Shown here piece after piece: positions 38,150 through 44,464 of a DNA stretch of 50,145 nt. The notes under the pieces were generated by a model, which was given only the letters and a program-made list of their open reading frames with translations, was not told the origin of the DNA and made no database searches. The translations under genes were made by a program, and so were the position numbers. The DNA comes from a virus (lineage: Duplodnaviria > Heunggongvirae > Uroviricota > Caudoviricetes). Numbering within the stretch: position 1 is the first letter of the stretch; every line of letters begins with the position of its first letter. The stretch lies in the IMG/VR virus record IMGVR_UViG_2579778539_000003. The stretch is one strand, 5' to 3'.

Positions 38150-39765
38150 ACATTAGCATAGGCTATTTACCATAACGCCTCATTACGCGCACCGCCCAGA
38201 CTGACTCAGCGCGTTTCTGGCATATCCCCGGTAAAACAAGTAACAAACCACCCGAAAATGAACACCAGAAACGCGACTTAAGAATCTACCCTATGAATGG
38301 ATATGCACTCAACCGAATCGATCTTGGTTTCAATCTTTTTTATCGGGATCAGGCTTCTTTTTAGGTAACTTCGGGGGCTTAACTTGCTGATGACTTTGCG
38401 TTCGGCGCGTAAGCCAGGGATGGTCAGCTTTAGGTTTAACATAGTATTTTGAGCGTAAATCAATACGGGCATTATCCACTCGTTCATGGACACTCTTTTC
38501 ATCATCCAGTGGTATAGGCTCCGGGCCATCAACATACTTTTCCCAGCCCAGCGCTTTCCCGTCATACAGAACGTTAATTTCACCGTCAAAGTTCTCGCAT
38601 ACAGTAACAACCGAATGCCTAAGTCGATATCCCCGGCCCTCACTGCGTACCTGAAACGCACTGCTTTTGTACTGGAAAGTGAGATTTTTAGACAGAACGC
38701 GCTTCGCCTGTAGGCTGAAGATATAACCCAGTTCCTCTTCAGAATGGTGCACATCAAGATGAGCATTATCAGTAGTACGAGGCGACGTAGCGAACCGGTT
38801 GTTATAGGCTTCAATAAAGGTCGGCAACCATGCATTTGCTGTTTCAATATCACTGATATTCTGAAGCCGCATTTCTTTGACCAGCCTGTCCTGTAGTGTC
38901 TGATTGGCGCGCTCTACCCGCCCTTTTGCCTGCGGGCTGTTGGCATGGATTGGCTCGATGCCCAGTGTCTTTATCGCACGAGTGAACTGGGTCAGCTCAC
39001 CTTCCCGCTCTGGGTTATTTACCCTGAATATACTGTGTCTATCAGAGTAGAGAGCGAGCGGTACGCCATGATCATTAAGGTAACCCCGGAGGGTTTCCAT
39101 GTAAGCCCGGGTTGTTTCAGCAGGCACAAAACGCAACGCCATCAACGCACTGGTGGCATCATCAATGAAAACGATCAGTGTACATCTGGGGCCTCGATTT
39201 TCAAACCAGTCATGAGGTGAGCCATCAATCTGGATCAGTTCACCGTAAGATGGTCGTCGCATGCGGCGTTGATATATACGGGCAATTTTACGACGGCGTT
39301 CACGCCATAACCCCTCTTCTATCATCCACTTTCTGAGAGTTTCAACGGATAAAGATAAACCGTGTATCTCGCGCAATTTTTCGCACGCAAACGTAGGTCC
39401 AAAATCAGCGTAACGGCCTTTGAGGAGTGAAATTACTGTTGCTCTGAATTCAGTAGAAAAGGAATTATTAGGACGCTTTCCACGTCGGTGGGAAACCAGA
39501 CCAGAAGGCCCTTCATTTCTATACCGTTGCACCAGACGTTTAACCTGCCGAATAGAAATGCCAATGCGTGCCGCAGCTTGTTCCTGAATAATCTGAAGTC
39601 GGTGGAGTTCCTTATGACTCATCGTAACAGTCTCTTTGATCATGAAAAATCCCCCAGAGAATTGTCTGGGGACATTTTAGAATGGTTCAAAGGGGACATT
39701 ACAGCTTGGTGTTAACAATAGCCTGCTTCTCCGTGCCTTTCGGCACGTAAGAGGCTAACCTACAT
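38150..39765 (-). mobile_element. Putative single-ORF IS element (IS481-like); boundaries approximate
   Basis: Encodes a DDE/rve transposase; ends only tentatively placed from weak terminal similarity (TAGG...GCCTC.TTACG.G). Confidence 0.4.
38330..39643 (-). CDS. DDE-type (rve integrase-core) transposase with N-terminal HTH
   Basis: 437-aa ORF; HTH GISIRQVKRLVQRYRNEG; core IQIDGSPHDWF...VFIDDATS...SDRHSIF...; Lys-rich C-terminus. Confidence 0.8.
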   Translation of the reverse strand: MIKETVTMSHKELHRLQIIQEQAAARIGISIRQVKRLVQRYRNEGPSGLVSHRRGKRPNNSFSTEFRATVISLLKGRYADFGPTFACEKLREIHGLSLSVETLRKWMIEEGLWRERRRKIARIYQRRMRRPSYGELIQIDGSPHDWFENRGPRCTLIVFIDDATSALMALRFVPAETTRAYMETLRGYLNDHGVPLALYSDRHSIFRVNNPEREGELTQFTRAIKTLGIEPIHANSPQAKGRVERANQTLQDRLVKEMRLQNISDIETANAWLPTFIEAYNNRFATSPRTTDNAHLDVHHSEEELGYIFSLQAKRVLSKNLTFQYKSSAFQVRSEGRGYRLRHSVVTVCENFDGEINVLYDGKALGWEKYVDGPEPIPLDDEKSVHERVDNARIDLRSKYYVKPKADHPWLTRRTQSHQQVKPPKLPKKKPDPDKKD

Positions 39766-39977
39766 GTGTCTAGCATGAAATTGGCCTCAGATTAATGTTA
39801 AGCGTCTTGCAGGACGCGTAATGTTAACTGGGGCTTTTCTCTATCTGCCGTTGGTGTCCATGCCCGAGGCAGATAGCCTCAAGCACCCGCAGTCATTCTA
39901 CTTAACTAAGATTTCCCCGCAAACCGTTTTTGTCCAGCACAGTAAATATCCAACTAAACCAATGGAGTTCGCTGTAT

Positions 39978-40157
39978 TTACCGCCAGTATTCAATGCACA
40001 TGACCGCCATGAACACCCCTAAAAAAAGGGCATTTATATATCCAAATATTAATATCAAAACATCAACTTTTTCCATATACCTTGCTGTGAAGATGATGGG
40101 CATACATGATGCGAACAACCAGAACGCAACAAACAAAAACTGCAATGCGTTTTTCAT
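39978..40157 (-). CDS. Candidate 59-aa two-TM small membrane protein
   Basis: ATG preceded by AGGAGG (spacer AATA); MKNALQFLFVAFWLFASCMPIIFTARYMEKVDVLILIFGYINALFLGVFMAVMCIEYWR. Confidence 0.45.
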   Translation of the reverse strand: MKNALQFLFVAFWLFASCMPIIFTARYMEKVDVLILIFGYINALFLGVFMAVMCIEYWR

Positions 40158-40399
40158 TATTCCTCCTACAATCAATGTGCAATTACATTTAAACACACCT
40201 CAATTTGGCCGGACATATAAATATCTAAACCAGAAAAAATCACTTACATAGCGTTACAAACTCTTTAGTCTAAAGGTTCATCGTAAAACATTCCCCATAC
40301 TTATCAGTCCGTTCCGCGCCAGGTAGCTCATTGCCTTATCTGGCAACCTGTAATCAGGTTTCCGCTTTTTCAGTTGGCTGGTCGTTTAACCGACATAGT

Positions 40400-41220
40400 T
40401 AATCCATTAATCTAGTTGCCGGATGTTGGTGGATTTTCGCGTTTTAGTTGTTCATAAAAGTGCACAGCTTTAACCAGTTCTTCTGATGTAACTGGGACTG
40501 GTGAGGCAGTGAATAAGGCCTGAATTTGATAGTTCGGCCTGTCGTTACAATCCTCTTTTTTCGGTACATATTTCCAGTCACCAGACCACTACTTCCCCTG
40601 AAAGTCCGTAACGCCTTTTTTCACGTAGCGATATCGCCATGCCACTGGTTTTGCTTGCCCCGCCGTTTCATGCCCTTCCTGATAATTAATCTCGCTCATT
40701 CATCGCCCCACTCATCACAATATGCTTCGACCGGAGTTTTTCCCGCTTCATAGTCATCACGCTAGGATTCGACATCAGCAGCACTTCCACCGCGTAACTC
40801 ACCATAGTCCATTAATAGTTCATCCCGCTCTTCAAAACTGATGTTATATTTAGCTGAACAAAAATCAGCCACTTTGTTCTTCCTCATCGTCTTTTATTTC
40901 GTGGTATGAGTAATTGCAGTAGTTAAAGAAAATTTCTTATGCTCCGTCATGAATTTCCTCAGGTGTTGCGTCATCGTCCACTTCGAATACATCCTCAAAA
41001 TCTCCACCAGCTATTCCCGTTTCAATAATAATTTTGAACTTTCGCATTTCACTACCGCCCTTTCGGGCGGCCTCCTGATGTTCTGAGGGTGCAGAAATCC
41101 ATCCGGTTAAGGATTAAATTTTATTTACAGAACTGAATTTAATTATTCAGATATACGTATCTGTAGCCTTACGAATCTACTCACTGGATGCCTCTTTCAT
41201 AAAAATAATCCAGTGGGTTT
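40400..41220 (-). pseudogene. Decayed nin-region small ORFs (one about 96-codon frame interrupted by in-frame TAG at 40589-40591)
   Basis: Several short overlapping minus-strand ORFs with weak RBS; ...VTDFQGK*WSGDWKYVPKK... reads through an amber. Confidence 0.3.
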
Positions 41221-41309
41221 TATCGTTTTTTCCCTGTTCGTTGACAGATAACAGGTTTTCTGTCTGTCAGTGCCAGAATCTGGCTTACCGGTATTTGCGT
41301 TTCATTCCA

Positions 41310-41666
41310 TTAAAAAATCAGAACGCCGTGCGGCCTCAACACCCGAAAGGCTTCTTTAAATCTCTGTCGCGAATCATCACGCCAGGCATCTTTATTCAGC
41401 CGTCCATATTTCTTTCCCATCCAGGCGTTATCACCAACACTCTCAAGATGCGGAGGGTCTAATACAACCATCGAAAAAGATGCGTCTGCAAATGATAATG
41501 CACGAAAATCTGCGATAATGTCAGGGCTGATAATCAAGCGTCTCCCATTGCGTAATGTGTATCCTTCTTTTCTGATATCGCTGAATATCGCCCGTTCGTC
41601 AGACTTATCGAACCAGAACATGCGGCTGCCACAGCACATATCAAGAATGGTTGCCGGTGCACTCAC
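41310..41666 (-). CDS. Small DNA N6-adenine/N4-cytosine-type methyltransferase (possibly truncated)
   Basis: 118-aa ORF with SAM-binding-like ILDMCCGSR and catalytic-like VVLDPPHL; GTG start overlaps upstream stop (GTGA). Confidence 0.6.
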   Translation of the reverse strand: MSAPATILDMCCGSRMFWFDKSDERAIFSDIRKEGYTLRNGRRLIISPDIIADFRALSFADASFSMVVLDPPHLESVGDNAWMGKKYGRLNKDAWRDDSRQRFKEAFRVLRPHGVLIF

Positions 41667-42085
41667 TGCGCCACGTCCTGAAAATTACCCTGATAGAAAG
41701 CCAGTATGCGCTGCATAACTTCGCTCTTCCGGCACTCGCGACAGATTATGTTTAGGCGACTGTCGTAGCGACGTATTTCTCCGTCAGGTGATGACCAGAT
41801 AAGGTCCGGATCAACCACAGCAGGTTTCTTCACCTTTGCCCTCGAGAGTTTTTTGCGGGCGTTTTGCCAGTCCTTACGCGCCTGTTCAGAGGGGAATAAC
41901 CCGTAGCCGGAGTTGTATACATCGCCACTGGCTACCAGCTCTCTGGCAAGAACGCTCATCAGATATCTAGTCGCACCTGTTTTAGCTTCCAGTTGCCGTA
42001 ACGTCTCACGGCCGCTCTGGCGCACGAGTTCCACCACCTGCCATTTAATTTTTTCCCGCTCTTCTTGTGTAAAAACTTTTGCCAC
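41663..42085 (-). CDS. Hypothetical 140-aa protein, translationally coupled to the MTase
   Basis: ORF MAKVFTQEEREKIKWQVVELVRQSGRETLRQLEAKTGATRYL... with possible HTH; 4-nt overlap with downstream gene. Confidence 0.6.
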   Translation of the reverse strand: MAKVFTQEEREKIKWQVVELVRQSGRETLRQLEAKTGATRYLMSVLARELVASGDVYNSGYGLFPSEQARKDWQNARKKLSRAKVKKPAVVDPDLIWSSPDGEIRRYDSRLNIICRECRKSEVMQRILAFYQGNFQDVAQ

Positions 42086-42125
42086 AAGTCCCCCTTAAAA
42101 TTACCTCATGACCTGAAATCAACAC

Positions 42126-43091
42126 TTATCCTCTGAAACCAGGCGGAATTTCTGTATCCGGTTCAGAAATATGATTAACACAACGCTGTACAGGTGAACG
42201 TCCCAGGCGGATGACCAGTTCGTCCCATTTTTCGCGGAGCTTTGACGGGCTCATGATGTTTTTTACCCAGAATGGATCTCGCTGAACCCGACCAAACATT
42301 TCGCAAATTTGTCTGTGGCTTCTGCCATCCAGCATCCGCATTGTGCGCACGTCATTGGCCCAGGCAGTCCAGTTAGGCTCTTTTGGTCGCATGATCTCGC
42401 CATCATCACTGGCTGCCTGTTCGTAGAGACCCACGATCCGCCCCCAGATCCACTGCGCACACGCCAAATCCTCCCTGCTACCCCACTGGCGTTTTTTCGC
42501 ACTAAACACAACCGCGTCGGAGTTCCGGGTTAAAAAATCCTGTTCAGTCGTCTGCGGGTCCGGTTGCGAAGCTTCCGGACGAAAAGTGTTTTTATTCTCT
42601 GTAGTAATCTCTGTTGTATTCTCTGTAAGATCATCAGGCCATTTTGACCCGATGACATTGGGTCGTTTTGAACCAATGGAGCGTTTCATTTTGACCTCTT
42701 CCATCGTGTCATTTTGACCTGATGGAGCGGCGCATTTTGAACCGATGGATTCGCTCAATTTGCCACCATCTAAAAGCTCGCTCCCATAGTTGATCGTGTA
42801 GAAATTGGTCATATCGCGCTTTGATTTATTGAGCTTTTCACAACGCAAAAGCCCCAGCGTTTTCAGACTTGCAAACGCGCGCTTTAACGTTGACTCTGAC
42901 CAGAATGGGAACTGTTCCAGCCATTGTTCCGTTGTGTTATAAATCCAGCGAACACCATCACATTCCATGCCGGAGATGGTATCTCTCAACCAGTAGTGCA
43001 GTTGTTGCAAAACAATGGCTTCGTTTAAGCCAATTTTCATTGCCAGCTGCGTGTTTATAACCAGTGGGCGTTCAGCAAAAAGAAGGCTCAT
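42126..43091 (-). CDS. Replication initiator, O-like (start taken at internal ATG; ORF track starts at TTG 43145)
   Basis: Iteron array lies in the middle of the ORF (linker SIGSK repeats); lambda-O-like organisation; C-terminal region resembles primosomal DnaT-like domain. Confidence 0.6.
   Translation of the reverse strand: MSLLFAERPLVINTQLAMKIGLNEAIVLQQLHYWLRDTISGMECDGVRWIYNTTEQWLEQFPFWSESTLKRAFASLKTLGLLRCEKLNKSKRDMTNFYTINYGSELLDGGKLSESIGSKCAAPSGQNDTMEEVKMKRSIGSKRPNVIGSKWPDDLTENTTEITTENKNTFRPEASQPDPQTTEQDFLTRNSDAVVFSAKKRQWGSREDLACAQWIWGRIVGLYEQAASDDGEIMRPKEPNWTAWANDVRTMRMLDGRSHRQICEMFGRVQRDPFWVKNIMSPSKLREKWDELVIRLGRSPVQRCVNHISEPDTEIPPGFRG
42631..42742. repeat. Origin iterons: 4-5 copies of ATTTTGA(A/C)C(C/T)GATGGAGCG at about 23-25 bp spacing, adjacent AT-rich tract at 42588-42630
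   Basis: Direct repeats at 42631, 42656, (degenerate 42678), 42701, 42724. Confidence 0.6.
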
Positions 43092-43593
43092 AATTCCATC
43101 CAGCTTTTTGTTGGTATTGCTGTCGATACGCAAGTTTGAAAGCAATTGCTTTTTCTATAAGTTCGTCAGTTTCACGATCCACTACGGCAGGATCAGCAAA
43201 AAGCAGTCCGGACTCCACCACATCGCCATATTCTTTGTTTAACCCGGCGATCATGCACGTGATGCTTTTTCCGTCAGTAATTTCACGATACAACCTGAAA
43301 TCATTAATCCGGATAGCCTCCATAATTGCAGGCACTAGCGCCGTGAACTTTTCACGCTTATCCCTGGTGTCGATAGCCTTCCAGCGTTCAAATATCTTCA
43401 CTCGATTAACGCCAAGCGCTCGCTGATCAATCGCGCCACCTTCATATGTGACACGCTGAACATCGATGTTCGGGCGCTCTTTCAAAGCCCAGAATGCTTC
43501 AGTGATTAATATCGTCGCCTGCTCCTGTGTCATTCCTGGTCGACATATCCAGGCATCCAGAGCCTCACGAGCCTGTTCAGGAGTGATTTTCAT
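43072..43593 (-). CDS. Hypothetical 173-aa protein downstream of dicC (cII-position gene)
   Basis: ORF MKITPEQAREALDAWICRPGMTQ...; overlaps dicC 3' end by 17 nt. Confidence 0.6.
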   Translation of the reverse strand: MKITPEQAREALDAWICRPGMTQEQATILITEAFWALKERPNIDVQRVTYEGGAIDQRALGVNRVKIFERWKAIDTRDKREKFTALVPAIMEAIRINDFRLYREITDGKSITCMIAGLNKEYGDVVESGLLFADPAVVDRETDELIEKAIAFKLAYRQQYQQKAGWNYEPSFC

Positions 43594-43807
43594 TGTTCAA
43601 CCGCCCCGCCCGCTTCGTCTTACGATATTCATCATAAACTTTGGGATCATACTGAAGCTCCCCGCCAGATGCCTCCTGTAGACGCATCGCGCGACCTTCG
43701 GGAACTAAATCCCCTTTCCAGCTATAAAGCGAAGCCAAACGAATACCTGCTGCTTGTGCAAGTTTTGTTTTTGAACCGAAATACAAAAGAGCGTCAGTTT
43801 TAAGCAT
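43577..43807 (-). CDS. dicC: DicC (Cro-like regulator)
   Basis: 76-aa MLKTDALLYFGSKTKLAQAAGIRLASLYSWKGDL... divergent from dicA. Confidence 0.85.
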   Translation of the reverse strand: MLKTDALLYFGSKTKLAQAAGIRLASLYSWKGDLVPEGRAMRLQEASGGELQYDPKVYDEYRKTKRAGRLNNENHS

Positions 43808-43821
43808 TTAAAACACCTTTA

Positions 43822-43841
43822 TTGTTAGTCATAACTAACAA
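43822..43841. promoter_or_regulatory. Palindromic operator in dicA-dicC intergenic region (TTGTTAGTCATAACTAACAA)
   Basis: 20-bp near-perfect palindrome between divergent dicC and dicA. Confidence 0.45.
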
Positions 43842-43890
43842 GATAGATGTTAACAAAAACATAGTCAATACGATTTAGCATTAGCTAACT

Positions 43891-44298
43891 ATGGAAACAA
43901 AAAATTTAACTATCGGCGAACGCATCAGGTATCGTCGGAAAAACCTCAAACACACCCAAAGGTCTCTTGCTAAAGCCCTGAAAATCTCCCATGTGTCTGT
44001 ATCACAATGGGAACGGGGTGATAGTGAACCTACAGGGAAGAACCTTTTTGCCCTCAGCAAAGTATTGCAATGCTCACCAACATGGATTCTATTTGGCGAT
44101 GAAGACAAGCAACCAACACCACCTGTTGAGAAGCCAGTTGCCTTATCCCCCAAAGAACTAGAGCTCCTTGAGCTGTTTAATGCACTGCCAGAATCAGAAC
44201 AGGATACCCAGCTCGCCGAAATGCGAGCTCGAGTAAAAAACTTCAATAAACTCTTTGAAGAATTACTAAAAGCCCGTCAGCGGACAAATAAAAGATAA
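43891..44298 (+). CDS. dicA: DicA (CI-like HTH repressor)
   Basis: 135-aa METKNLTIGERIRYRRKNLKHTQRSLAKALKISHVSVSQWERG... Confidence 0.9.
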   Translation: METKNLTIGERIRYRRKNLKHTQRSLAKALKISHVSVSQWERGDSEPTGKNLFALSKVLQCSPTWILFGDEDKQPTPPVEKPVALSPKELELLELFNALPESEQDTQLAEMRARVKNFNKLFEELLKARQRTNKR

Positions 44299-44464
44299 CA
44301 TCATCAATGAGTTATCTTTTACCACATCAATTATGTTAGCTATAGCATACAAAATCACTTGACCGATATGTTAGTCATGGCTAATCTTGTTTGCATCAAC
44401 ACACCGCACGGTGTTCTCAGCAAACAGTTCCGCTACCCCAGCGTTAAGGGGAAATGAGGTCAGC

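Follow-up and report, generated by a model that had tools for sequence, protein, structure and literature searches.

A lambdoid replication module without a helicase-loader gene carries a DnaT-type tail on its initiator, a candidate docking peptide for DnaC-type loaders

The locus described here is a replication module belonging to a lambdoid prophage of the Qin/DicB type, located in a window of 50,145 nucleotides (the whole stretch of viral DNA that was analyzed; IMG/VR record IMGVR_UViG_2579778539_000003). Judging from its internal repeats, the initiator gene very probably contains the origin, and no gene for a helicase loader was found beside it. The likeliest answer to the puzzle of the missing loader is the C-terminal tail of the initiator, which resembles the end of E. 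coli DnaT; on balance, this tail appears to dock a DnaC-type loader, which in the present case would be that of the host. The lambdoid origin in the window is in itself ordinary; what makes it interesting is the mechanism, in that the tail would offer a sequence-level explanation of how loader-less lambda-type replicons can work. The initiator gene and the parts of its product are the following:

42126..43091 (−): gene for the replication initiator (321 aa), from the ATG at 43091 to the stop codon at 42126-42128
42792..43064 (−): N-terminal winged-helix DNA-binding domain, presumed iteron reader; aa 10-100, AF2 pLDDT 80-91
42201..42545 (−): C-terminal helical domain, homologue of the lambda O C-domain; aa 183-297, AF2 pLDDT about 90
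42129..42188 (−): DnaT-type C-terminal tail QRCVNHISEPDTEIPPGFRG; aa 302-321, predicted to be disordered

The ORF originally assigned to the initiator (42126-43145, minus strand) is present in the ORF list. Its TTG start at 43145 is an artefact of the ORF caller; all homologues of the initiator begin with MSLL, and they, together with three phage annotations that use the ATG at 43091 (PhiR42_1, mEp460_ev081, and HannyBb), point to this codon, which is almost certainly the real start. The protein matches PHROG 391 (“replication initiation O-like”; E 1.2e-91), and comparison with Pfam and NCBIfam returned no family except for a 20-residue match to NCBIfam DnaT. Structure prediction with AF2 was poor when based on an alignment of 12 sequences (pLDDT 52) and yielded usable domains with 33 sequences; the resulting domain plan consists of the winged-helix N-domain, a disordered linker, a C-domain of the lambda O type, and the tail. 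In the PDB, Foldseek matched the N-domain best to those of plasmid initiators of the RepA_N type (4pql, and 5kbj, a Rep-DNA complex), with a probability of 1.00, a TM(target) of 0.56-0.58, and 16-18% identity, but with E values of 0.01-0.05, which makes the match a weak one. Phage_rep_O (PF04492), which scores 1e-30 to 1e-36 on lambda O and Gifsy-1 O, did not match the N-domain at E<0.1; thus, the likeness to lambda O that had been proposed for the protein does not extend to this domain. For the C-terminus it was borne out, as hhalign aligned the C-domain with lambda O 179-273 at a probability of 99.7% (E 1.7e-26, 41% identity). Since the C-domain had no structural match in the Foldseek search against the PDB, where only the N-domain was matched, and weakly, its identity was settled by this profile comparison and not by structure search. 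Probing the window with lambda O in tblastn also retrieved the initiator (E 1.5e-21).

The last 20 residues of the initiator are identical to residues 160-179 of E. coli DnaT at 14 of 20 positions (70%); they match positions 160-179 of NCBIfam DnaT, and the extreme C-terminus RDVNxxSEPDxxIPPGFRG is present. The resemblance is confined to this part: when the initiator was compared with DnaT by hhalign, just the last 19 residues were aligned, and the three-helix DNA-binding domain of DnaT (PF17948), which does match E. coli DnaT and the initiator of SPN1S, found no Pfam match in the initiator. DnaT-type tails occur on four unrelated C-domain families, namely that of lambda O, that of DnaT itself (PF17948, in SPN1S), that of Gifsy/YdaU, and that of 75/02/Tritos. 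Across 57 distinct coding sequences, the P, G, F, R, and G of the tail are invariant; for the P and the first G, each of the four synonymous codons occurs. Literature searches on the motif string, on DnaT together with lambdoid phages, and on the function of the DnaT tail found no discussion of the tail.

Across the related sequences compared, tail type tracks loader type. In a sample of one genome per species, all 28 initiators with a lambda-type tail were accompanied by P, versus none of the 14 with a DnaT-type tail (Fisher p = 1.6e-10, calculated on 23 versus 14 as binned by regular expression). Among IMG/VR viral contigs, 77 of 80 lambda-tail contigs carried P, a sample that is redundant because it consists of the 80 nearest relatives of the query sequence; diversity was supplied by the one-genome-per-species scan and by single look-ups, and all of these counts come from related, not fully independent, sequences. 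Conversely, 73 of 74 phage DnaC-like genes were preceded by an ORF ending in IPxGFRG, with at least five different N-termini represented. A DnaC-like neighbor was found for none of the 14 DnaT-type tails of the genome sample, so that the link to DnaC rests on the other samples. Loader families at a greater distance are paired with still different tails. In the genome sample, a third type of tail (WxxIWKQ…) was loader-less as well; a tail is therefore not the only possible route.

The relatives amount to a natural domain-swap experiment, in which the initiators are near-identical and the short tail predicts whether P, a DnaC-like gene, or nothing comes next. P0036 and P0038 are 80% identical up to the tail, and their similarity breaks exactly at the border between domain and tail; the former has a lambda-type tail and a Phage_lambda_P gene, the latter a DnaT-type tail and no loader. 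Likewise, P0140 and P0136 combine lambda-type tails with P, P0130 combines a DnaT-type tail with an IstB/DnaC-like gene, and P0133, P0137, and P0261 have DnaT-type tails without a loader. On the tree of C-domains, the tail has switched independently at least five times. The genes following the tail in loader-less modules are unrelated to each other (DUF977, PerC-like, Dam, ParB-like, DUF1064, and DUF1627). Two sets of apparent exceptions were discarded. ORFs of 438-445 aa behind certain tail-bearing initiators, considered as helicases, are ParB-like (DGHHR motif; PF17762) and not DnaB, and two Xenorhabdus loci with lambda-type tails seemed to lack P owing to ORF calling only, as tblastn finds P-homologous sequence there.

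How the module might operate can be outlined from these comparisons. The initiator would bind the five or six 23-bp iterons inside its own gene via the N-terminal winged helix and open the AT-rich tract of 12-mers next to them, in the manner of lambda O at ori-lambda. The tail would serve as a short peptide on which DnaC-type loaders dock: in modules with a phage dnaC-like gene, it would engage the protein encoded there, and in modules without one, such as this, it would bring host DnaB6-DnaC6 to the opened origin. Origin activity of the repeats, contact of the tail with DnaC (or with DnaB-DnaC), and dependence on host DnaC are what we infer from sequence. A more general notion, to be taken as tentative, is that initiators may carry an exchangeable C-terminal “loader code”, that is, a disordered tail of 12-20 residues which chooses the helicase loader, with DnaT holding the code of the DnaC type. 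How that code might be read is equally tentative: …W…W..L could specify lambda P, …IPxGFRG true DnaC-type loaders, and other tails other IstB-like families. In practice, the tail would provide a simple rule for predicting the host-factor dependence of prophage replicons.

A different partner for the tail has to be considered, although we regard it as unlikely. The tail could plug the initiator into the PriA-PriB restart primosome instead of DnaC, making it a DnaT mimic for which DnaB is loaded by the restart route. It is copied from a restart protein, after all, and initiators of the SPN1S type carry the whole DnaT DNA-binding domain in addition to the tail; furthermore, the initiator has an acidic linker, a feature it shares with the linker by which DnaT binds PriB (PMC13377028). 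However, preprimosome structures assign the contact with PriA to the surface of the DnaT C-domain and that with PriB to the acidic linker, and the tail stands before all but one of the phage DnaC-like genes and never before P, which is the pattern expected of a loader-specific peptide.

The association between tail and loader might also be one of hitch-hiking, for which we see still less probability: the final 40-60 nt of the initiator would include the ribosome-binding site for the gene that follows and would recombine together with that gene as one cassette, while recruitment would be achieved by direct binding of DnaB or DnaC to the O-type C-domain, or by an unknown host factor. The last three codons of the tail (TTC AGR GGG) indeed double as the Shine-Dalgarno sequence of dnaC and dnaC-like genes, in phages as well as in E. 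coli, and the genes sharing it start 2-3 nt after the stop of the tail gene, with AGRGGG thus lying in the last codons just ahead of their ATG. Codon use is strongly skewed at the F-R-G of the tail, and the point at which P0036 and P0038 diverge would suit such a cassette. Against this stands that the motif spans 19 residues with synonymous variation at invariant positions, that the tail is retained in loader-less modules before unrelated genes, and that it is found on host DnaT and on C-domains of four unrelated kinds; in the window, moreover, 41 nt separate the initiator gene from the next one, which has a Shine-Dalgarno sequence of its own. Because of the double use of TTC AGR GGG, selection acting on the nucleotides, or plain physical linkage, could account for part of the conservation of the tail and of its linkage to DnaC.

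If the tail does dock DnaC-type loaders, the implications reach beyond the phage. How DnaT recruits DnaB/DnaC “remains unknown” (PMC13377028); a 2026 paper on the preprimosome suggests, by analogy to DnaA, that the N-terminal domain of DnaT is responsible, and leaves the tail undiscussed. As DnaT shares its tail with the DnaC-associated class, the present data nominate a peptide of 13-20 residues as the element that recruits DnaB/DnaC in the restart primosome; were this true, the C-terminal tail of DnaT would be the long-sought DnaB-DnaC recruiter in replication restart. The shared tail also explains why annotation pipelines label such phage genes “primosomal protein I”.

The neighborhood of the initiator gene is made up as follows:

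41310..41666 (−): truncated SAM-dependent DNA methyltransferase fragment; 118 aa, PHROG 954 positions 52-165 of 229
41663..42085 (−): DUF977/LygF protein, counterpart of lambda Ren; 140 aa, Pfam DUF977 E 5e-29
43072..43593 (−): cII/YdaT-like gene, upstream in the same rightward operon, overlapping the initiator start by 20 nt
43577..43807 (−): Cro/DicC-like gene, upstream in the same rightward operon as the initiator
43891..44298 (+): divergent repressor

An IS element and the truncated methyltransferase gene, whose Pfam methyltransferase matches are weak, lie just downstream of the replication module. It had originally been noted that no lambda P-like or DnaC-like ATPase is encoded downstream, and all searches agreed with this: no helicase loader was found among the downstream genes by comparison with Pfam, NCBIfam, and PHROG, the full annotation of a 100% identical phage record contains no loader gene, and a six-frame tblastn of the entire window gave no match when lambda P, E. 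coli DnaC, and four DnaC-like proteins of phages served as queries. The 140-aa protein, which occupies the slot after the initiator, is very unlikely to be a novel loader in place of P. It proved to be a homologue of Ren, matching PHROG 142 (“Ren-like exclusion protein”; E 1.6e-47) and, locally, the C-terminus of lambda Ren; apart from DUF977 and PHROG 142 it has no matches, and neither AAA+ ATPase motifs nor homology to the P family were detected in it (PF01695, PF06992). In sister modules, DUF977 genes lie downstream of real loaders, in the order O-P-DUF977 in L173 and O-DnaC-like-...-DUF977 in Rac, 75/02 Stx, and L179, and DUF977 is therefore not the missing loader; it is also absent from other loader-less modules.

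The prophage could, in principle, be a decaying remnant that has lost its loader gene and can no longer use its origin. The IS element and the truncated methyltransferase downstream would fit such a scenario, and decayed variants of the initiator gene exist elsewhere (e.g., P0011 and P0001). The same gene order, however, is found in mEp460_ev081 and HannyBb, which are plaque-forming (HannyBb being an isolated phage), and, with the same 41-nt spacer, in 54 of the 80 nearest IMG/VR viral contigs; moreover, the initiator has an intact ORF with 95-100% conservation. Decay is thus highly improbable: the loader-less design is viable, and an initiator with an origin inside it and neither a loader nor a helicase gene alongside is common to the window, both phages, and those 54 contigs. 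Weigel and Seitz (2006) reportedly named this category “initiator-solo”. In 12 other contigs, a DnaC-like gene starts 7 nt behind initiators that are 93-95% identical over all 321 aa, so that a phage loader can be regarded as an optional cassette.

The putative origin consists of these elements, to which no strand is assigned:

42632..42770: iteron array of six 23-nt units in register, core GGTCAAAATG on the coding strand
42748-70 (degenerate), 42725-47, 42702-24, 42679-01, 42656-78, and 42632-54: individual iteron units
42589..42628: AT-rich tract, candidate DNA-unwinding element; 28% GC
42593..42628: three 12-nt AT-rich repeats, of the TATTCTCTGTAG type on the plus strand

Direct repeats with an adjacent AT-rich tract in the middle of the initiator gene, following the ori-within-O logic of lambda, had been predicted, and both were found, at the same place in the linker as in lambda and next to a homologous C-domain. 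The array contains five good copies and one degenerate copy of a 23-nt unit, spaced by 23, 23, 23, 23, and 24 nt, with certain units being partly palindromic (CATCnGG...CCnGATG). The repeat consensus as first proposed held in its core, which fits five copies, whereas its 20-nt version fits merely two to three. Exact matches to the 10-nt core CATTTTGAMC number four in the whole window, both strands counted together, all within 42640-42742, against ∼0.2 expected by chance according to our own arithmetic; a fifth copy with one mismatch is in register with the others. The repeats had also been read as encoding SIGSK-type linker repeats; three copies do encode (S/V)IGSK, but the other two encode GQND and EVKM, and the cores lie in reading frames 1, 0, 2, 1, and 1. 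With three frames in use, it is the DNA and not the protein in which the repeat is kept. Core and spacing recur in the homologues L173 and L174 (70-80% identical), and in the variant P0018 a 31-aa (93-nt) deletion removes four units. The iterons co-vary with the type of N-domain, relatives with other N-domains carrying other repeats at the same place. Read along the gene, the iterons are immediately followed by the AT-rich tract, the 40-nt stretch of lowest GC content in the gene (48% as a whole); it recurs in relatives with different iterons (e.g., L179). Iterons and tract together fall into the disordered inter-domain linker (33-52% of the gene), and the relative position of the tract (48%) is that of the known AT-rich element of lambda. 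As a positive control, the same tools recovered the annotated iterons and AT-rich element of lambda. DnaA boxes do not accumulate by the iterons: one TTWTNCACA match is nearby (42066-42074), and the window has 4 in total versus 5.3 expected. That the repeats are nothing but a repetitive protein linker or a slippage product can practically be discarded, since, despite their location in coding DNA and the three (S/V)IGSK copies, the frames differ, the cores are conserved as DNA in a fixed 23-nt phase, relatives with other N-domains have other repeats there, and the proven iterons of lambda behave identically under the same tool.

Among known systems, lambda O/ori-lambda shares with the window an origin inside the initiator gene, with four to six iterons and then an AT-rich element in the inter-domain linker, the homologous C-domain, and a Ren-like gene downstream. 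In contrast to lambda, the N-domain is not of the PF04492 type, the iteron sequence differs, there is no P gene (PF06992), and the lambda O tail …TNTDWIYGVDL, which always travels with P, is replaced by the DnaT-type …SEPDxxIPPGFRG. The iteron plasmid initiators of the RepA_N type (pSK41/pTZ2162 RepA), the closest, if weak, structural match of the N-domain, bind iterons, as is presumed for the window's initiator. Such plasmid initiators rely on host helicase-loading proteins; their C-domain is unrelated, and the window has no cluster of DnaA boxes. Rac YdaU-YdaV, Gifsy-1/2 O-DnaC, and Stx 75/02 “primosomal protein I”-DnaC also have initiators or organizers with a DnaT-type tail, often DUF977/LygF downstream, and the same layout of the immunity region, but they carry a phage DnaC-like loader (YdaV shares 49% identity with DnaC) and other C-domains, neither of which is the case in the window. 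Tritos, SPN1S, and Klebsiella ST11-OXA245phi3.2 resemble the window in having a tail-bearing initiator without an adjoining loader or helicase gene, and differ from it in their N- and C-domains, SPN1S having the full DnaT C-domain. DopC, which together with DopE represents a domesticated lambda O/P pair (Brezellec et al, 2017; PMC5509034), is an O-like protein in which the C-terminal part of lambda O is replaced by a DnaT-C-like element; unlike the window's initiator, it is chromosomal, lacks iterons, and is paired with the P-like DopE (PMC5509034). The latter pairing would count against the model linking tail and DnaC if DopC ends in the terminal IPxGFRG. E. coli DnaT itself shares with the window's protein the SEPDxxIPPGFRG at the very C-terminus, and differs from it in possessing PF17948 and the DnaT N-domain and in being a restart factor, whereas the phage protein is predicted to be a sequence-specific origin binder. 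The dnaT-dnaC operon, in which dnaC starts 2 nt after dnaT, is mirrored by the sister phage modules, where a dnaC homologue begins 3-7 nt behind the tail gene; if the docking model is true, dnaT-dnaC would be a domesticated phage organizer-loader pair, and loader-less phages would exploit that host interface directly.

The region around the initiator gene (41300-44300) matches Escherichia phage PhiR42_1 (ECOR13) at 100%, and the element is a lambdoid prophage of the Qin/DicB type. ORF and family annotation bore out the predicted order downstream of the initiator (140-aa protein, methyltransferase, IS) within the following early-right operon:

43577-43807, minus strand: Cro/DicC-like gene, first in the operon
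43072-43593, minus strand: cII/YdaT-like gene, second
42126-43091, minus strand: replication initiator, 321 aa, third
41663-42085, minus strand: DUF977 protein, 140 aa, fourth
41310-41666, minus strand: truncated methyltransferase, fifth, with the IS element next
38330-39643, minus strand: IS transposase ORF, 437 aa, an insertion that separates the truncated methyltransferase from the flxA/relBE/hokD region

The stretches concerned by this insertion are 38330-39643 (minus strand) and 39700-41300, and the deposited "complete" PhiR42_1 genome carries the same IS. The TTG start of the initiator ORF at 43145 is an ORF-caller artefact; the ATG at 43091 is the start in three phage records and in all homologues, which gives 321 aa. 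GenBank already includes this sequence, with the annotation "replication protein O" or "primosomal protein I".

Pfam returned no match for the initiator, and PHROG 391 ("O-like") matched it at 1e-91. In an AF2 model based on a 33-sequence alignment, a winged-helix N-domain (aa 10-100) and a helical C-domain (aa 183-296) were confidently predicted on either side of a disordered linker (aa 110-178), the coding DNA of which contains the iterons and the AT-rich tract; the C-terminal tail was also predicted to be disordered. The C-domain is, as judged by profile alignment, homologous to lambda O 179-273 (hhalign 99.7%, E 1.7e-26), which is why the label "O-like" of the original prediction is right for this part. 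It does not fit the N-domain, which is of another kind, the nearest solved folds (weakly matched) being the N-domains of RepA_N plasmid initiators.

The repeats and the adjacent AT-rich tract predicted within the gene are both real. The repeats form six 23-nt units in register (42632-42770), five of which have a good core (coding strand: GGTCAAAATG). Across the 50-kb window, CATTTTGAMC is matched exactly at four sites, all within ~100 nt, and a fifth copy, with one mismatch, is in phase with them. The predicted SIGSK-type peptide repeats were found for three copies, encoding (S/V)IGSK, but not for the rest, where the frames differ; as all three reading frames of the initiator gene are represented among the cores, selection on the DNA is indicated. 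A natural variant (P0018) lacks exactly 31 codons, equalling four iteron units. Directly 3′ of the array in gene orientation, three 12-nt repeats (42593-42628) make up the AT-rich minimum (42589-42628), whose 28% GC is lower than in any other 40-nt stretch of the gene. They encode T-E-x-T-T-E, and because the 12-nt period keeps the reading frame, DNA and an acidic, ssDNA-like peptide are indistinguishable as the selected level. This peptide/DNA motif recurs in initiators with other N-domains and other iterons (alignment A3 of the homologues). When lambda was analyzed with the same tools, its annotated iterons and AT-rich element were recovered at the same relative positions, in line with the ori-within-O logic proposed for this candidate origin. 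Homologues sharing the N-domain type keep iteron core and spacing; those with other N-domains have different repeats at the same place in the gene. This co-variation is the pattern expected of cognate, if so far putative, initiator-iteron pairs.

P0018 is one of three rearranged homologues of window 42126-43593. The others are P0001 (448 aa, on 56 contigs), an in-frame YdaT/cII-like-initiator fusion at a shared "LLFA" microhomology, and P0011, in which the initiator is fused to the methyltransferase, with loss of tail and DUF977.

The predicted lack of a lambda P-like or DnaC-like gene downstream held for every frame of the window and for the full annotation of the matching phage. This absence is not by decay. 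Among the 80 nearest IMG/VR relatives listed (C-domain at least 95% identical to that of the initiator), 54 have the initiator-DUF977 order with the same 41-nt spacer, an order also present in mEp460_ev081 and HannyBb. A DnaC-like gene follows 7 nt after the initiator in 22 of the 80, and in 12 of these the initiator is 93-95% identical over its full length; thus, the phage dnaC-like gene is an optional cassette of one and the same replicon. The 140-aa protein, whose being a helicase loader would have refuted the original prediction, could be ruled out as such: it is DUF977/LygF, labelled "Ren-like" in PHROG and locally similar to lambda Ren, it comes after genuine loaders in other modules (O-P-DUF977 in L173; O-DnaC-like-…-LygF in Rac, 75/02 Stx, and L179), and it is missing from other loader-less modules. 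Two contigs titled as Bacillota and Veillonella parvula MAGs (L197 and L199) carry a near-identical E. coli-type initiator-DUF977 module, most likely through enterobacterial contamination or mis-binning.

The last 20 residues of the initiator (QRCVNHISEPDTEIPPGFRG) are identical to E. coli DnaT 160-179 at 14 positions; the rest of the protein bears no resemblance to DnaT. This DnaT-type tail ends initiators/organisers with at least four unrelated C-domains:

lambda-O type: window initiator
full DnaT domain (PF17948): SPN1S
Gifsy-1/2 O, Rac YdaU, and Klebsiella type
75/02 Stx and Tritos type

Across 57 distinct coding sequences, the IPxGFRG motif of this tail has an invariant P, G, F, R, and G, with all four synonymous codons in use for P and the first G. 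The last codons are nearly always TTC AGR GGG TAA, with the dnaC(-like) ATG 2-3 nt on, so that F-R-G doubles as the dnaC ribosome-binding site, both in E. coli (dnaT-dnaC junction, L092 2476-2500) and in phages (L241-L320); part of the pattern may, therefore, stem from linkage and translational coupling. That the tail is kept before unrelated genes, that in the window (42126-42146; TTC AGA GGA) 41 nt separate it from a next gene with its own Shine-Dalgarno sequence, and that the conserved motif extends 19 residues argue for a role at the protein level. No literature on the motif or on a link between tail and loader was found.

Lambda O ends in …TNTDWIYGVDL, and many proteins with its C-domain type end in related W…W..L tails. 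P0036 and P0038 are 80% identical over residues 1-301, and similarity breaks exactly at the tail: the former ends in a lambda-type tail, its stop codon overlapped by a Phage_lambda_P gene, the latter in a DnaT-type tail with no loader. Likewise, P0140 and P0136 combine lambda-type tails with P, P0130 a DnaT-type tail with an IstB/DnaC-like gene, and P0133, P0137, and P0261 DnaT-type tails with no loader. Among Enterobacterales (one genome per species), P-homologous sequence lay directly downstream of 28/28 lambda-type but 0/14 DnaT-type tails (Fisher p = 1.6e-10, computed on the automatically binned 23 vs 14). The tail types are interleaved on the C-domain core tree, which implies at least five independent switches. 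P was present in 77/80 of the lambda-tail viral contigs listed. Conversely, 73 of 74 phage DnaC-like genes have an ORF that ends in IPxGFRG 3 nt upstream, and these ORFs show at least five different N-termini; in E. coli, dnaC begins 2 nt after dnaT, and DnaC shares 49% identity with phage YdaV. IstB-like loaders that are more distant and have zinc-ribbon N-termini are paired with other conserved tails.

Tails paired with other loaders
…(K)DYGQTxxPxWA(Q/E): distant loader, mEpX1 (L324) and Hafnia yong1 (L326)
…EREDGTYGF, listed also as …DRDYTAGLIEREDGTYGF: distant loader, Pseudomonas phage Fyn8 (L325)
…HRRGFD: distant IstB/DnaC-like loader, Bcep22 (L323)
…KPPGFN: true-DnaC-type loader, Aeromonas pAEv1818 (L321)

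These pairings hint that each loader family may have its own cognate tail. DopC, which is DnaT-C-like, is paired with the P-like DopE (PMC5509034). A third, amphipathic tail on lambda-O-type C-domains (…W(N/S)SIWKQAxEMxQExQ, in some …IW(T/A)E..QR…) occurs in Edwardsiella, Sodalis-like, and Proteus prophages (L207-L209, L212, L214, L216, L218-L219, and L221-L222), with P or DnaC-like genes downstream in 0 of the 10 loci examined. In Citrobacter sp. Cu233 (L203), a DUF1627 gene comes after an initiator with a DnaT-type tail, and three ORFs further on lies a 73-aa lambda P-like fragment, which may be a relic of loader replacement.

From the observed anatomy, homologies, loader absence, and tail-loader co-variation, we infer that the N-domain would bind the iterons and that the complex would open the 12-mer AT tract, as is established for the O-some in lambda. 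The disordered DnaT-type tail would then dock a DnaC-type loader bound to DnaB which, with no phage copy in the window, would be that of the host. Origin and initiator add a further example to a well-known type. Lambda genetics by Furth et al. in 1978 reportedly mapped the specificity for P to the C-terminal portion of O; the present comparisons suggest that it resides largely in the last dozen residues. For DnaT, the mechanism of DnaB/DnaC recruitment was stated as unknown in a 2026 preprimosome paper, which, by analogy with DnaA, favoured recruitment through the N-domain (PMC13377028). If our reading is right, the tail would be the part of DnaT that brings in DnaB/DnaC.
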